A DNA stretch of 36,920 nt from an uncultured Planctomycetaceae bacterium (GCA_964552875.1 CAZKIY010000003.1:1324-38243), one strand, 5' to 3'; numbered from the stretch's first letter, positions 14,301-18,008 are shown. Translations and numbers: made by a program. The notes: generated from the letters alone by a model not told the origin.

Positions 14301-17300
14301 ATGACGACCCCGCCGCCCTCCGACCTCGCGAACGACCCGCTGCTGCGCGACGTGCCCGACGTCGACGGCTGGAAGGTCCTCGATCCCGCCATCCTCTTCG
14401 CGAAGATCGGCCAAGGCGGCATGGGTGCCGTCTACCGCGGACGTCACGTCGAGCTCGAGATCGATGTCGCGGTCAAGTGTCTCAAGCCGAGCCTCGTCGC
14501 CGAGGACGCGCAATTCGAAGCGCGCTTTCGCCGCGAAGCTCGCCTCGCCGCGGAGCTGACGCACGAGAACCTCGTGCGCCTGTACGAGCTGCGCCGCTCG
14601 CACGGGCTGAGCTACTTGATCCTCGAGTTCGTCGATGGCGAGACTGCGCGCGACCGCGTGGTGCGCAAGGGCCCGCTGGGCGAGCAAGAAGCGTGCGGGA
14701 TCCTCCTCGGCGTCGCGCGCGGCCTCGCGAAGGCGCACCGCCACCGCGAGGTGATCGTGCACCGCGACATCAAGCCCGAGAACATCCTGATCTCGAAGAC
14801 GGGCGAGGTGAAGGTCGCCGACCTCGGCATCGCCAAGGCGATGGAGTCCGACGGCGGCACGCTCTCGACGCAGGGTTTCCTCGGCACGCCGGCGTACATG
14901 GCGCCCGAGCAGTGGGAGGACTCTTCGCTCGTCGGACCGGCGACCGACGTGTGGGCCGCGGGCGTGACGCTCTACTTCCTTTTGACCGGTCGAACAGCCG
15001 TGCGCACCGGCACCGTCCACCAGATCAGCTACGAGATCTGCAACCGCGCGTTCCCCGATGTGCGCGCGCTGCGCTCCGACGTCTCCGCCGACGTGCTGCG
15101 GATCCTGACGCGCTGCACGCAGAGGGATCCCAAGGCGCGCTATGCGGATGCCGCCGATCTGGCCCGCGATCTCGAGGCGTTCCTGCAAGGGCAGATGCCG
15201 TCCTTGTCCGACCGCGACTCGGGATCGGTGAAGTCGACGATGCCGCTCTTCTCGCCGCCGCCCGCGCACGCGCTGAAGCAGGTGCGTCTGGCGCGCTCGG
15301 GTAAGGGGACGGGGACGAGCGGCGAAACCGCGCCCGCTTCGGGAGCAGGATCCGCGGCGGGGCGTTCGACGACGCCCGCGGCGCCCGCGACCGGGGCGCC
15401 GCGCGGATCTCGCCGCGTCCCGGCCCTGTGGGCCGCGGGTGCGATCGCCGCCGTCGCTCTCGTCGCGCTGGGGTACGTGTTTTGGCCGCGATCCGACGAC
15501 AGCGAGACGCGCGATGGAGCGGGTGCCCCGTCCGGTTCGCGCACGTCGGCGCGCAATCCGACCACGGTCGACTCCACCTTGCGGGCGCAGCCAGCGAATG
15601 CAGCGCTCGTGTCCGGTTCAACGGGAGGTTCGGTCGATGCGACATCCGCGTCCGCCGCCACGCGGATCGCGCTCGACACGCCGCTGCGAGACGGCCTGCT
15701 CTACACGCGCGACCTGAACTTCGTGCTCGCCGGCCAAGTCCGCGACGCAGCCACGCCGTCGCTGCGCCTGAAACGCGGCGGCCGCACGAGCACGTACCCG
15801 ATCGAGTCCGAGGGTCGGTTCACGATCGACTTGGGGCTACGCCGCGACGCGCGCGAGACGATCGAACTCGCGCTCGACGAAGGCTCCAGCCTGTCGTTCA
15901 CACTCGTCCAGGACTCGAAGCCGCCGCAGATCGAACTTCTCGCGCCGGGACCGACCGCGCGACGCACGAACTCCCTCTCGATCGAGGTCCGCGCGCGCCT
16001 CGACGACCCCGAGGCCGCACGCTGCTTCGTCGGCGCGAGCGAGATGCAAGCCGGTTCCGACGGCGTCTGGTCCGCGCCGGCGGTCGAACTCGTCGCCGGC
16101 GAGAACGCGCTGGTCGTCGTCGCCGAAGACCTGGCCGGCAATCGCTCGACGCTGCCTTTCTCGGTGCGCTGCGACGCGCGCGGACCCGCACTGCTCTCGT
16201 CGGTCCCTCCCTCCGGCGCGCGCGTGGATATCGGCACGCGGGTGCGCGTCGAACTCGCCTTCGACGAGTCCCCGAAAGTCGCGCGCTTGGCCGGCGAGGC
16301 TGCGGCGATCGCCGAGGCTCGCGTCAGCGCCGACCTCGTCGTTCCCGCGGGAGAGGGTCCGTGGCGGATCGCCTGGTCGGTCGAAGACGACCTCGCGAAC
16401 GCGACGTCGGGCCAGCTCGTGCTCGAGCGCGCGGTGCGTCGAATCGCGCGCATCGTCCTCGACCCGCCGCTGCCGGAGGGCAACGTCGTGTACAGCCGCG
16501 AGACCAAGCTCGACCTGCGCGGCCGGATCGAGGACGCGTCGGGTGAGAGCGTGCGCGTCGAGATCGCGGGCCGTGGCTCGAACCACGCCTTGGGACCGCA
16601 AGGTGCGCTCGAGGTCACCAGCCTGACCTTGCCGCGCGATCAGCGCTCGGCCGTCGCGCTCGTGCACGGAACCGGAGAGTCGGCGACGCGGCTCGAGTTC
16701 GAGGTCGTTCAGGACTCCCTCGACCCGGTGCTGGAGTTCACCCGACCGGATCCGGCTGGACGGCTGACGAACCGTGACGCGATCGACCTCTCGTTGCGCG
16801 TGACCGAGTCGAACCTCGCGTGGGTTCGGCTGGGTTCGCGCGAACTGGAGGCGGGACCGTCGGACACGTGGACGGCGGAGGGCGTCGCGCTCGAGAGCGA
16901 AGGCTCGAACACCTTGGTCGTCACCGCGCGCGACCGCGTCGGGCGCGAGGCGCGCGCGTCGATCGAGGTCGTGCGCGACACGCTCGCGCCGCGGCTCGTG
17001 CGCTCCGAGCCGCCCGCGGACACCGTGCTCGAGGCGGGCGCGGCCGTGCCGATCGCGCTCGAGTTCGACGGCGCGGTCGCGAGCGGCAAGATCAGCGGAC
17101 AGCCCGGCGAGGCCGCGGATGCACGGCTCGCTCGCGCGGGTCAGGTCCCCGCGGGCGAAGGCTCGTTCGAGGTTCCCTGGAGCGCGATCGACCGCGCCGG
17201 CAACGCCGCGAACGGCATCTTGCGCTACGCGCGGCGCGCCAAGCCGAAGGTGCGCCCGCCCGAGGGTTGGGAGATCGTCGATGCGACACCAGGGCACGAC

Positions 17301-18008
17301 GGCTGGGCGCGCAAGGTCAAGGAACCGCGCAGCGGGATCACGTTCGTGCTCATCGCGCCGGGGACGTTCCAGATGGGTTCACCGGCGGGCGAGGAGGGTC
17401 GCAGTGGCGACGAGCAGCAGCACCCGGTGGAGATCACGCGCGCGTTTTATCTGGCCGAGACGGAGACGACGCAGCAGCAGTACGAGCGAGTCGCGGGCTC
17501 GAACCCGAGCACCTTCAAGGGACCGACGTTGCCCGTGGAGTCCGTGGATTGGACCCAGTCGCGCGCGTTCTGTCAGCAGATCGGTTGTGACCTGCCGACC
17601 GAGGCGCAGTGGGAGTTCGCTTGCCGTGCTGGCACGACAACACCCTTCTCGTTCGGGCCGACGATCAGCACCGACCAGGCGAACTACGACGGGAACGACA
17701 CGTACGGTTCGGGCCGCGAGGGGACCTACCGCGAGAAGACCGTCCCTGCGCGTACGTTCCCCGCCAACACTTGGGGGCTGCACGAGATGCACGGCAATGT
17801 GGGGGAGTGGTGCGTCGACGGCTACCGCGCGGACTTCCAGGCACTTTCCAGGACGGATCCCGTCGAGCAGCCATCGGGTGACACGCGCGTTCTGCGCGGC
17901 GGGTCCTGGTTCAGCGTCCCTGACTACTGCCGCGCCGCCGCACGCGCTGGGCGCGCGCCCGCCGACCGGAACGACATCGTCGGTTTCCGCGTCGCGAGGA
18001 CTCTGTGA
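14301..18008 (+). CDS. Transmembrane Ser/Thr protein kinase with duplicated Ig-like ectodomain modules and a C-terminal FGE-sulfatase/C-type-lectin-fold domain; DGR target protein
   Basis: Kinase motifs are present: GQGGMGAVYRG, VAVK, HRDIKPENILI, DLGIAK, GTPAYMAPEQ. A P/A/S-rich linker precedes a TM helix VPALWAAGAIAAVALVALGYVFW (about 15417-15486). Two homologous modules of about 260 aa follow. The FGE-type domain runs about 17265-18005 (FQMGSP...HPVEITRAFYLAETETTQQQY...VDWTQSRAFC...LPTEAQWEFACRAGT...GLHEMHGNVGEWC...RVLRGGSW). The last 39 codons are the DGR variable repeat. Confidence 0.9.
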   Translation: MTTPPPSDLANDPLLRDVPDVDGWKVLDPAILFAKIGQGGMGAVYRGRHVELEIDVAVKCLKPSLVAEDAQFEARFRREARLAAELTHENLVRLYELRRSHGLSYLILEFVDGETARDRVVRKGPLGEQEACGILLGVARGLAKAHRHREVIVHRDIKPENILISKTGEVKVADLGIAKAMESDGGTLSTQGFLGTPAYMAPEQWEDSSLVGPATDVWAAGVTLYFLLTGRTAVRTGTVHQISYEICNRAFPDVRALRSDVSADVLRILTRCTQRDPKARYADAADLARDLEAFLQGQMPSLSDRDSGSVKSTMPLFSPPPAHALKQVRLARSGKGTGTSGETAPASGAGSAAGRSTTPAAPATGAPRGSRRVPALWAAGAIAAVALVALGYVFWPRSDDSETRDGAGAPSGSRTSARNPTTVDSTLRAQPANAALVSGSTGGSVDATSASAATRIALDTPLRDGLLYTRDLNFVLAGQVRDAATPSLRLKRGGRTSTYPIESEGRFTIDLGLRRDARETIELALDEGSSLSFTLVQDSKPPQIELLAPGPTARRTNSLSIEVRARLDDPEAARCFVGASEMQAGSDGVWSAPAVELVAGENALVVVAEDLAGNRSTLPFSVRCDARGPALLSSVPPSGARVDIGTRVRVELAFDESPKVARLAGEAAAIAEARVSADLVVPAGEGPWRIAWSVEDDLANATSGQLVLERAVRRIARIVLDPPLPEGNVVYSRETKLDLRGRIEDASGESVRVEIAGRGSNHALGPQGALEVTSLTLPRDQRSAVALVHGTGESATRLEFEVVQDSLDPVLEFTRPDPAGRLTNRDAIDLSLRVTESNLAWVRLGSRELEAGPSDTWTAEGVALESEGSNTLVVTARDRVGREARASIEVVRDTLAPRLVRSEPPADTVLEAGAAVPIALEFDGAVASGKISGQPGEAADARLARAGQVPAGEGSFEVPWSAIDRAGNAANGILRYARRAKPKVRPPEGWEIVDATPGHDGWARKVKEPRSGITFVLIAPGTFQMGSPAGEEGRSGDEQQHPVEITRAFYLAETETTQQQYERVAGSNPSTFKGPTLPVESVDWTQSRAFCQQIGCDLPTEAQWEFACRAGTTTPFSFGPTISTDQANYDGNDTYGSGREGTYREKTVPARTFPANTWGLHEMHGNVGEWCVDGYRADFQALSRTDPVEQPSGDTRVLRGGSWFSVPDYCRAAARAGRAPADRNDIVGFRVARTL
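17883..17998 (+). repeat. DGR variable repeat (VR), in frame at the 3' end of the kinase gene
   Basis: Encodes [38 protein letters not shown]. It is identical to TR except at 18 positions. Confidence 0.9.

Follow-up and report, generated by a model that had tools for sequence, protein, structure and literature searches.

Background

The targets of cellular diversity-generating retroelements (DGRs) are mostly orphan binding proteins without a read-out, and the purpose of these elements in cells is largely obscure. One described kind of target joins a Hanks-type serine/threonine kinase to a C-type-lectin-fold (CLec) domain of the formylglycine-generating-enzyme (FGE) type. Proteins with a kinase and an FGE-sulfatase domain form category b12 of Wu et al. 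2018 (PMC5758913), kinase-CLec proteins are the commonest multidomain DGR targets in cyanobacteria, where a cytosolic location is predicted for most of them (Vallota-Eastman et al. 2020, PMC7517822), and targets named 'Pkn1/PknD' occur in surveys of metagenome-assembled genomes (PMC11661182). Here we describe a DGR whose target gene encodes a receptor-type kinase of this kind, located in a 36,920-nucleotide stretch of DNA from an uncultured Planctomycetaceae bacterium (GCA_964552875.1, CAZKIY010000003.1:1324-38243); this whole stretch is hereafter called the window, and positions are counted from its first letter. An earlier note, made from the nucleotide sequence without database searches, had proposed that the DGR diversifies the extracellular tip of a transmembrane kinase. 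It had also stated that kinase-linked DGR targets were already known from genomic surveys and had no defined ligand or substrate, and both statements agree with the three surveys cited above.

The window locus belongs to this already reported class of kinase-CLec targets, with which it shares the N-terminal Hanks kinase, the C-terminal FGE-type CLec domain, a variable region (VR) in the last ~40 residues, and adjacent genes for Avd and a reverse transcriptase (RT). It is distinctive in its membrane-spanning topology, its immunoglobulin (Ig)-like stalk, its host, which is probably a planctomycete, and the population evidence of VR turnover. In the cyanobacterial proteins the kinase is joined closely to the CLec domain and a cytosolic product is mostly predicted, whereas in the window protein a transmembrane helix and a stalk of ~530 aa with six modules lie between the two, and because they separate the kinase from the CLec domain the latter is predicted to be extracytoplasmic. 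TvpA of Treponema denticola (2Y3C) resembles the window protein in its FGE-type CLec fold, in a VR at the extreme C terminus, in a non-variable last strand encoded by the initiation of mutagenic homing (IMH) sequence, and in being non-enzymatic, as is predicted here, but it is a stand-alone protein of ~300 aa without a kinase, a transmembrane helix or an Ig-like stalk. Kinases of the PknB/PknD type have the same cytoplasmic Hanks kinase, single transmembrane helix and extracytoplasmic sensor; their sensors consist of PASTA repeats or a beta-propeller, whereas that of the window protein consists of Ig-like modules and a CLec domain. To our knowledge, no PknB-type kinase with a retroelement-diversified sensor has been described.

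Two further comparisons are instructive. The DGR 'antigen sensors' (Dore et al. 2024, PMC10907252; Kaur et al. 2020, PMC7159879) likewise fuse CLec domains to signalling domains; their partners are STAND NTPases and, in one case, a Pkinase domain, and some of the CLec domains are predicted to be periplasmic. The window protein, by comparison, carries its output domain, a kinase, on the polypeptide that also contains the CLec domain. Plant lectin receptor-like kinases offer an analogy only: they too combine a lectin-type ectodomain, one transmembrane helix, a cytoplasmic Ser/Thr kinase and a diversified recognition repertoire, but their ectodomains are unrelated, and their repertoire arises by germ-line gene duplication instead of retroelement rewriting of a single gene.

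Results and discussion

Adenine-directed variation at the C terminus of a receptor-type kinase

We favour, with a probability of about 0.6, the reading that this DGR diversifies a one-pass receptor kinase in which ligand binding drives clustering of the kinase domains, and that a population of cells thereby samples ligand specificities for one fixed output. The features of the locus are collected in Table 1. The VR and the template region (TR) differ at 19 positions, 16 of which are adenines in the TR (P = 2.3e-8, given 27 A in 119 nt). These adenine-linked changes fall only on the first or second position of a codon, in 13 codons from residue 1204 to 1226, and the TR read in the VR frame contains 11 AAC codons, one GAC and one AGG, which together allow ~1.0e14 possible peptides. 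The earlier note had assigned the VR to the last ~40 residues and the variable residues to 1204-1226, precisely where the repeat and its adenine-linked mismatches were found. Beyond the GC-rich block that VR and TR have in common, the two diverge (VR, GAGGACTCTG; TR, GAGCACGCCC), and the putative IMH and IMH* sequences differ asymmetrically, with GAGGAC in the VR and GAGCAC in the TR; the same pair occurs in the related contigs L001, L002, L003 and L005. Some DGRs have a hairpin downstream of the VR. A hairpin or terminator was sought immediately 3' of the VR of the window; the predicted fold was not significant (z = -1.5), and a consensus scan there found nothing.

Table 1. Positions of the DGR, its target gene and the domains of the target protein in the window
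Feature	Position	Strand	Residues and remarks	Basis
DGR target gene	14301..18008	+	1235-aa bitopic receptor-type Ser/Thr kinase (predicted topology)	Open reading frame and domain searches
Hanks-type kinase domain	14400..15146	+	34-282; predicted cytoplasmic	Pfam Pkinase, E 6e-51
Single transmembrane segment (predicted)	15417..15485	+	373-395; VPALWAAGAIAAVALVALGYVFW	Sole Kyte-Doolittle 19-residue window >1.6
Stalk of six Ig-like beta modules	15657..17240	+	~453-980; predicted extracytoplasmic	AlphaFold2/DSSP, internal repeat
FGE-type CLec domain	17241..18005	+	981-1235; putative non-enzymatic ligand-binding module	Pfam, PDB match, AlphaFold2
VR	17883..18001	+	1195-1234	119-nt direct repeat with TR
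Variable codons of VR			1204, 1205, 1206, 1208, 1209, 1214, 1216, 1217, 1218, 1222, 1224, 1225, 1226	
Invariant 3' end of VR, read as IMH	17978..18008	+	Encodes last beta strand	21-nt GC-rich block common to TR
TR	18245..18363	+	Non-coding, intergenic, 22 nt upstream of avd	119-nt direct repeat
avd accessory gene	18386..18946	+		Pfam bAvd, 3.4e-19; NCBIfam DivGenRetAVD equivalog, 92.5 bits (cut-off 80)
DGR RT gene	18943..20004	+	353 aa	Pfam RVT_1

The retroelement genes follow the target in the order target-TR-avd-RT. In the RT, the motifs I202-G-N-L-T-S-Q208 and Y234-C-D236-D237 are invariant in 32 relatives and agree with the [I/L]GxxxSQ motif and the YxDD catalytic box of DGR-clade enzymes; the NCBIfam group II intron model scored under its cut-off. 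The Avd domain occupies residues ~75-182 of its product (Pfam match from residue 80), after an N-terminal stretch of ~75 residues rich in Pro, Gly and Ala (18386-18610). Translation of avd may in fact begin at a later codon; alternatively, the stretch may also serve as a TR-proximal RNA spacer.

A second, remote VR was also considered. The only other IMH-like match in the window lies at 29994-30013, with three mismatches, inside an HU/IHF-family gene (29769-30035). It contains a 17-nt exact match to the IMH-like block (CGTCGGTTTCCGCGTCG) and encodes VGFRV; because no VR-like sequence lies upstream, the match was attributed to a coincidence of peptide and codon usage, and the candidate was rejected as chance.

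Natural VR alleles point to an active retroelement

We compared the target protein with its closest relatives and found that its 90%-identity cluster (seven members from public metagenomes and one NCBI assembly) carries four VR peptides. One member, P0122, differs from the window protein by exactly 10 residues, all at TR-adenine codons, while P0125 and P0001 differ at 8 and 12 VR codons, respectively, and at a small number of residues outside the VR. A search of the contigs placed neither P0122 nor P0256. Every related contig that reaches the TR has the same TR sequence as the window, and in L001-L005 each VR/TR mismatch falls on a TR adenine, the one exception being a C/G difference in the IMH that is fixed. 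Between these near-identical strains, RT identity is 99.4-99.7% and Avd identity 100%. The locus occurs in the JGI samples 3300020192, 3300020203, 3300020213, 3300027850 and 3300022222. Because all 10 differences between the P0122 allele and the window protein lie at TR-adenine codons, the element appears to be active in nature; and since four VR alleles coexist with an identical TR and near-identical RT and Avd, the VR appears to have been rewritten repeatedly among otherwise near-identical strains.

The same comparison bears on the possibility that the DGR is a relic, with old VR/TR differences and a protein that now serves as a fixed-specificity receptor kinase. Two non-adenine VR mismatches suggest some drift since the last homing event, and the lack of a significant hairpin 3' of the VR would fit a decayed element. 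However, four VR alleles among near-identical strains, an invariant TR, intact RT and Avd, and an allele (P0122) that departs from the window protein only at TR-adenine codons appear already to contradict this explanation at the population level, and we consider it highly improbable.

The kinase domain retains its catalytic residues

An AlphaFold2 model of target residues 36-1235 (mean predicted local distance difference test, pLDDT, 83.9) comprised a confident kinase, a disordered region at ~332-452, six confident all-beta modules at ~453-980, and the C-terminal domain. The kinase motifs GQGGMG (37), VAVK (56, with K59), HRDIKPEN (154), DLG (174), APE (201) and DVWAAG (216) are all present, and alignment with the family revealed the following residues to be invariant in 36 of 36 homologues: G37/G39/G40/G42, K59, E79, H154-R155-D156, K158, N161, D174-L175-G176, T196-P197, E203, D216 and R280. 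Thus the protein carries the full set of Hanks features, namely the Gly-rich loop, VAIK Lys, alpha-C Glu, HRD Asp, catalytic-loop Asn, DFG Asp, APE Glu, subdomain IX Asp and subdomain XI Arg; in the alignment of 36 family members, the DLG variant of DFG is family-wide. The closest relative in the PDB is PknB of M. tuberculosis (1mru, E 1.3e-42), with an alignment that spans the whole catalytic core. With every catalytic invariant kept, the kinase is predicted to be catalytically competent; in the model, residues 182-190 of the activation loop are disordered. The earlier note had called this N-terminal kinase intact on the strength of HRDIKPEN, DLG and APE. These motifs indeed fall at invariant family columns, and the loss of catalytic residues that would have told against its reading was sought by alignment and was not found.

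No PASTA repeat was matched by Pfam in the target protein, and the NCBIfam model NF033483 (PknB_PASTA_kin) scored 262 bits, under its cut-off of 450, with a match confined to the kinase and juxtamembrane region. Similarity to anti-phage defence kinases (PD-T4-6, MADS Mad6, Stk2 and BREX PglW) was also considered: the PADLOC PD-T4-6 models matched the kinase domain only (E 4e-73), no better than PknB, the NCBIfam MAD6 and PglW models scored far under their cut-offs on the target kinase, and no partner genes are present. We took these matches as generic kinase similarity.

A predicted single membrane segment and an Ig-like stalk separate the kinase from the variable domain

Hydropathy analysis of the target identified exactly one strongly hydrophobic segment, of 23 residues (Kyte-Doolittle mean up to 2.15), flanked by RGSRR on its N side and PRSDDSE on its C side. 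Exactly one such segment follows the kinase in 99 of 118 homologues (median start residue, 377), and the kinase side is the richer in K/R in 80 of those 99. C-terminal to it stand the six stalk modules, which have an all-beta DSSP pattern and a pLDDT mostly >85. The stalk consists of two copies of a three-module unit of ~262 aa (15663-16445 and 16449-17234; 34% identity, E 7e-40), and its six modules appear to have arisen by tandem duplication of that unit. A Pfam Glucodextran_B/Big_13 match covers residues 554-625, and the DNA repeats D2 and D6 fall in the stalk region. Ig-like modules are typical of extracytoplasmic proteins. Together, the single helix, its flanking charges and the all-beta ectodomain place the CLec domain and its VR outside the cytoplasmic membrane, a topology that we infer from hydropathy and the positive-inside rule.

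This architecture agrees with the single transmembrane helix and the ~520 aa of Ig-like modules that the earlier note had described after the kinase. Its predicted topology stood in part. A kinase inside and a VR domain beyond the cytoplasmic membrane are supported by the helix, the charges and the ectodomain fold, but its phrase 'outside the cell' needs amending. Planctomycetes have two membranes, so for such a host the position should be given as extracytoplasmic, and the ectodomain probably faces the periplasm rather than the medium. A cytoplasmic VR domain, which the note had named as fatal to its proposal, was not indicated by hydropathy, flanking charge or ectodomain fold.

A different arrangement, in which the hydrophobic segment does not span the membrane and a cytoplasmic CLec domain acts by autoinhibition or substrate selection, deserves mention here. 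Most cyanobacterial variable proteins are predicted to be cytosolic, and autoinhibition or substrate choice has been proposed for them (Vallota-Eastman 2020, PMC7517822); AlphaFold2 confidence for the hydrophobic segment of the window protein is also low. Nevertheless, we regard a cytoplasmic CLec domain as very unlikely in view of the length, hydropathy and positive-inside charge pattern of the segment, its comparable position in the homologues counted above, and the six Ig-like modules that come after it.

The C-terminal CLec domain is a putative binding module

We next considered the domain that carries the VR. The earlier note had recognized a C-terminal FGE-sulfatase/CLec-fold domain, and profile searches recovered it as a Pfam FGE-sulfatase match to residues 1014-1233 (E 5e-43). 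Modelled alone (residues 980-1235), it reached a pLDDT of 96.3, and its top sequence match in the PDB was the T. denticola DGR protein TvpA (2y3c; phmmer, E 7e-28). Foldseek matched the model to PvdO, FGE and TvpA, the last with a TM-score of 0.76 and a root-mean-square deviation of 2.2. In Mtd and TvpA, the variable residues begin after a beta strand and pass through loops and a short strand, while the IMH encodes the final invariant strand (PMC5006420), and the variable residues of TvpA are exposed (PMC5758913). The VR of the target matches this layout, with 8 of the 13 variable residues in loops of the CLec model.

Variation in the wider family shows where the domain tolerates change. Across 35 kinase-CLec homologues, mean entropy was 3.29 bits at the 13 variable columns and 1.56 bits at the other VR positions, and R1199, G1200, G1201, C1210, R1215, G1228 and R1230 were nearly or fully invariant. 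Since family entropy concentrates at these 13 columns, the TR adenines appear to coincide exactly with the natural specificity-determining positions of the family. Radical exchanges (e.g., F/Y/D, V/F/D/G and R/F/N/G) are tolerated in the natural alleles. By homology to TvpA, and from the tolerated substitutions and family entropy, the 13 variable residues are predicted to form an exposed binding surface.

The name that NCBI gives to this very large planctomycete family, 'bifunctional serine/threonine-protein kinase/formylglycine-generating enzyme family protein', implies instead a kinase fused to an enzyme that activates sulfatases, for example the one encoded at 2921-4441. The Pfam match is in keeping with such a role, as are that sulfatase gene 10 kb upstream of the target and another that adjoins the homologue P0002. 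Catalysis by FGE depends on two copper-binding cysteines (human C336 and C341), however, and only the second has a fixed counterpart, C1210. The residue aligned to Cys336 is S1205, a hypervariable position that is AAC in the TR and encodes S, N or G among the natural alleles, and the column is mostly Ser, and never dominated by Cys, in 35 homologues; moreover, TvpA, the closest structural relative, lacks FGE activity (PMC5758913). Because the Cys336 equivalent is itself a hypervariable codon, the CLec tip appears to be a binding module and not a formylglycine-generating enzyme, and we judge a bifunctional enzyme extremely unlikely. Given the predominance of Ser in that column, the FGE half of the family name is probably wrong.

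Two observations concern the origin and divergence of the domain. The nearest CLec relatives are stand-alone proteins of ~300 aa with 54-60% identity; the two that were inspected have no adjacent RT, and the idea that the CLec domain arrived with the DGR cassette found no support. Compared with L001, L003 and L005, the CLec scaffold upstream of the VR (17340-17880) diverges much faster than its surroundings. Against L001, it contains 16 synonymous and 12 non-synonymous differences in 194 codons, and the rest of the gene 3 and 7 in 1000 codons; the Ig stalk, avd and RT differ at ~1 mismatch per 500 nt, compared with a ~2% background (~10 per 500 nt) over the shared region. The scaffold changes have no adenine bias, and possible causes are recombination between old alleles under diversifying selection or a local mutational effect.

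A model for retroelement-diversified signalling and its main rival

Under the favoured reading, the TR would be transcribed, and the RT and Avd would copy it into cDNA with misincorporation opposite adenines. The cDNA would then replace the last 119 nt of the target coding sequence, redrawing 13 codons and leaving the scaffold codons fixed. In the resulting protein, the six-module stalk would present the 13 variable residues of the distal CLec domain beyond the membrane, and ligand binding to the ectodomain could bring kinase domains together, as in PknB and PknD. Such clustering may drive trans-autophosphorylation of the activation loop (the T186/S188/T189 region) and, subsequently, phosphorylation of cytoplasmic substrates. 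With the signalling output kept constant, a population could in this way use the DGR to try out a large number of ligand specificities. The receptor could serve in nutrient or polysaccharide sensing, in envelope surveillance, or in the detection of phages or competitors, the last of which has been proposed for other DGR 'antigen sensors' (PMC10907252).

Several observations weigh against this reading. The proposal that VR ligand binding controls phosphorylation draws on the architecture of the protein and on analogy with PknB-type kinases, and the window encodes no FHA-domain protein, phosphatase or other obvious substrate. In the AlphaFold2 model, the membrane region has a pLDDT <50, with only a short low-confidence helix in the hydrophobic segment. 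Two VR/TR mismatches, at 17942 and 17948, do not involve adenines: each affects a TR cytosine that closes an AAC codon. The VR reads GCA and GCT there, both encoding Ala and synonymous relative to the expected GCC, and the mismatches look like ordinary drift since the last homing event, rare non-adenine misincorporation being the alternative. Finally, neither an RT nor an Avd gene lies within 6 kb of any of the four closest full-length homologues (P0002, P0003, P0005 and P0015), which implies that hypervariation is not intrinsic to how the receptor family works.

The main rival holds that the CLec tip is an anchor or adhesin for the wall, the envelope or a partner cell, that it localizes a cell contact or a kinase regulated by other means, and that the DGR tunes adhesion, a role already suggested for TvpA and for the majority of cellular DGR targets. 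A probable part in surface interactions has been ascribed to TvpA, which has the closest solved structure (PMC5758913), and Roux et al. infer for most cellular DGR targets that they are anchored in the membrane and bind substrates outside the cell (bioRxiv 10.1101/2020.04.01.020958). Long Ig-like stalks are a typical feature of adhesins, and 0.4-0.5 kb beyond the RT, on its downstream side, a large repeat protein resembling a lipoprotein is conserved. Yet the kinase is under strong purifying selection and is fused to the ectodomain through one helix, a layout typical of signalling receptors, and in a two-membrane bacterium a protein of the inner membrane would probably not extend far enough for its tip to touch other cells. 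An anchoring role is on these grounds unlikely, though it deserves to be kept in view.

A broader and more speculative extension of the ligand-gated kinase would make these proteins bacterial 'antigen-receptor kinases', that is, somatically diversified extracytoplasmic lectin-fold receptors that share one kinase output, provide anticipatory, repertoire-based sensing and recur across an entire clade of DGRs. If so, rare cells whose receptor binds a phage component, a competitor molecule or a new polysaccharide would trigger phosphorylation and be selected. We put this forward as a doubtful but interesting generalization.

The fusion itself offers a practical advantage. A hypervariable domain joined to an intact kinase provides a measurable output, in the form of autophosphorylation and substrate phosphorylation, and four natural VR alleles exist on a near-identical background; the link between VR sequence, ligand and signal can therefore be tested in recombinant or chimeric proteins. 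This holds even though the host is uncultured, and makes the protein a good candidate for in vitro work.

Relatives and recurrence of the architecture

A search for homologues of the target (E <= 1e-10, best 8000 candidates scored) returned at least 3891 proteins, nearly all of which, among those listed, combine a kinase with an FGE-sulfatase domain, and which are mostly assigned to Planctomycetota where named. The RT has 1449 homologues, and its named relatives also belong to Planctomycetota. Since the named relatives of both proteins are mostly Planctomycetota, the host is probably a planctomycete. Judging by the four closest full-length homologues, the receptor family mostly exists without an adjacent DGR. 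In a contig scan with the full-length alignment, whose search patterns derived from the kinase domain, the matches listed were dominated by generic kinases; 0 of 80 loci among them had a DGR RT, a figure that gives no estimate of the frequency of DGR linkage in the family.

We also identified six other DGR loci, five of them independent of the window locus, in whose targets a kinase and a hydrophobic segment occur together with a VR mutated at adenines. The closest RT relative with a usable target sequence, L172 (RT 65% identical), has the same order target-TR-avd-RT, and its VR and TR differ by 21 adenine-specific mismatches. Its target joins a kinase to a CLec domain through a hydrophobic segment, which RERGR precedes, and a helical spacer of ~400 aa that stands in for the Ig modules. 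In four more distant loci (RT 41-45% identical), the kinase, hydrophobic segment and VR also lie in one open reading frame, with 13-22 adenine-specific mismatches; the frames span 2147 codons from stop to stop in L120, 640 in L137, 746 in L141 and 950 in L147, and a CLec match was detected in the first three and none in L147. Because L172 and these four loci share the succession of kinase, hydrophobic segment and VR, the receptor-kinase layout appears to be a recurrent type of DGR target with interchangeable stalks, found across a DGR clade. At L172, on a related NCBI contig, the TR just downstream of the VR is annotated as a protein-coding gene of 82 aa (2437-2685) with a weak FGE-sulfatase match, an annotation artefact that probably recurs at DGR loci.

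Genomic surroundings

Upstream of the DGR, the window encodes an acyl-CoA dehydrogenase, a sulfatase, a lipoate ligase, an HDOD protein, gcvP/H/T, an unknown 542-aa protein and ParDE, and downstream a large lipoprotein-like protein, TPR proteins and a small-GTPase/Roadblock cluster. No phage genes were found in the window, and because housekeeping genes flank the cassette, the DGR appears to be chromosomal and not part of a phage. A search of the window for a MoxR-vWA, STAND NTPase, caspase or TIR partner also found none.

The large protein downstream of the DGR (20390-24046; the JGI start is equivalent to 20543) follows the RT in every allele, with lengths of 1167 to 1218 aa, and an 81-aa open reading frame lies between the two. 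Its N terminus resembles a lipoprotein signal (MRLGKYAIPVTFAVLASFTGC), the remainder is rich in T/V/D/A repeats, and searches of Pfam, NCBIfam and PADLOC gave no match. Next comes a cluster at 24093-29095 with two TPR proteins, one Roadblock/LC7 protein, a small GTPase of the Arf/Rag-like kind and another Roadblock/LC7 protein. A long tail rich in Q/M/P and a hydrophobic segment at the C terminus characterize the GTPase, and the arrangement resembles MglA/MglB; GTPase-centred conflict systems with FGS domains have been mentioned in planctomycetes (PMC7159879).

Gene content just upstream of the target varies between strains. The window (13407-14086) and L005 (3247-3848) carry a ParD-like/ParE toxin-antitoxin pair, and L001-L004 have at that position a 93-aa open reading frame and a 173-aa retropepsin-like (gag-asp_proteas) one (9028-9834 in L001). 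The 542-aa protein (11586-13214) matched no family in Pfam or NCBIfam. Its region includes a sharp hot-spot of divergence between strains at 11500-12000, where 50 mismatches were counted, compared with a typical 1-18 per 500 nt elsewhere.

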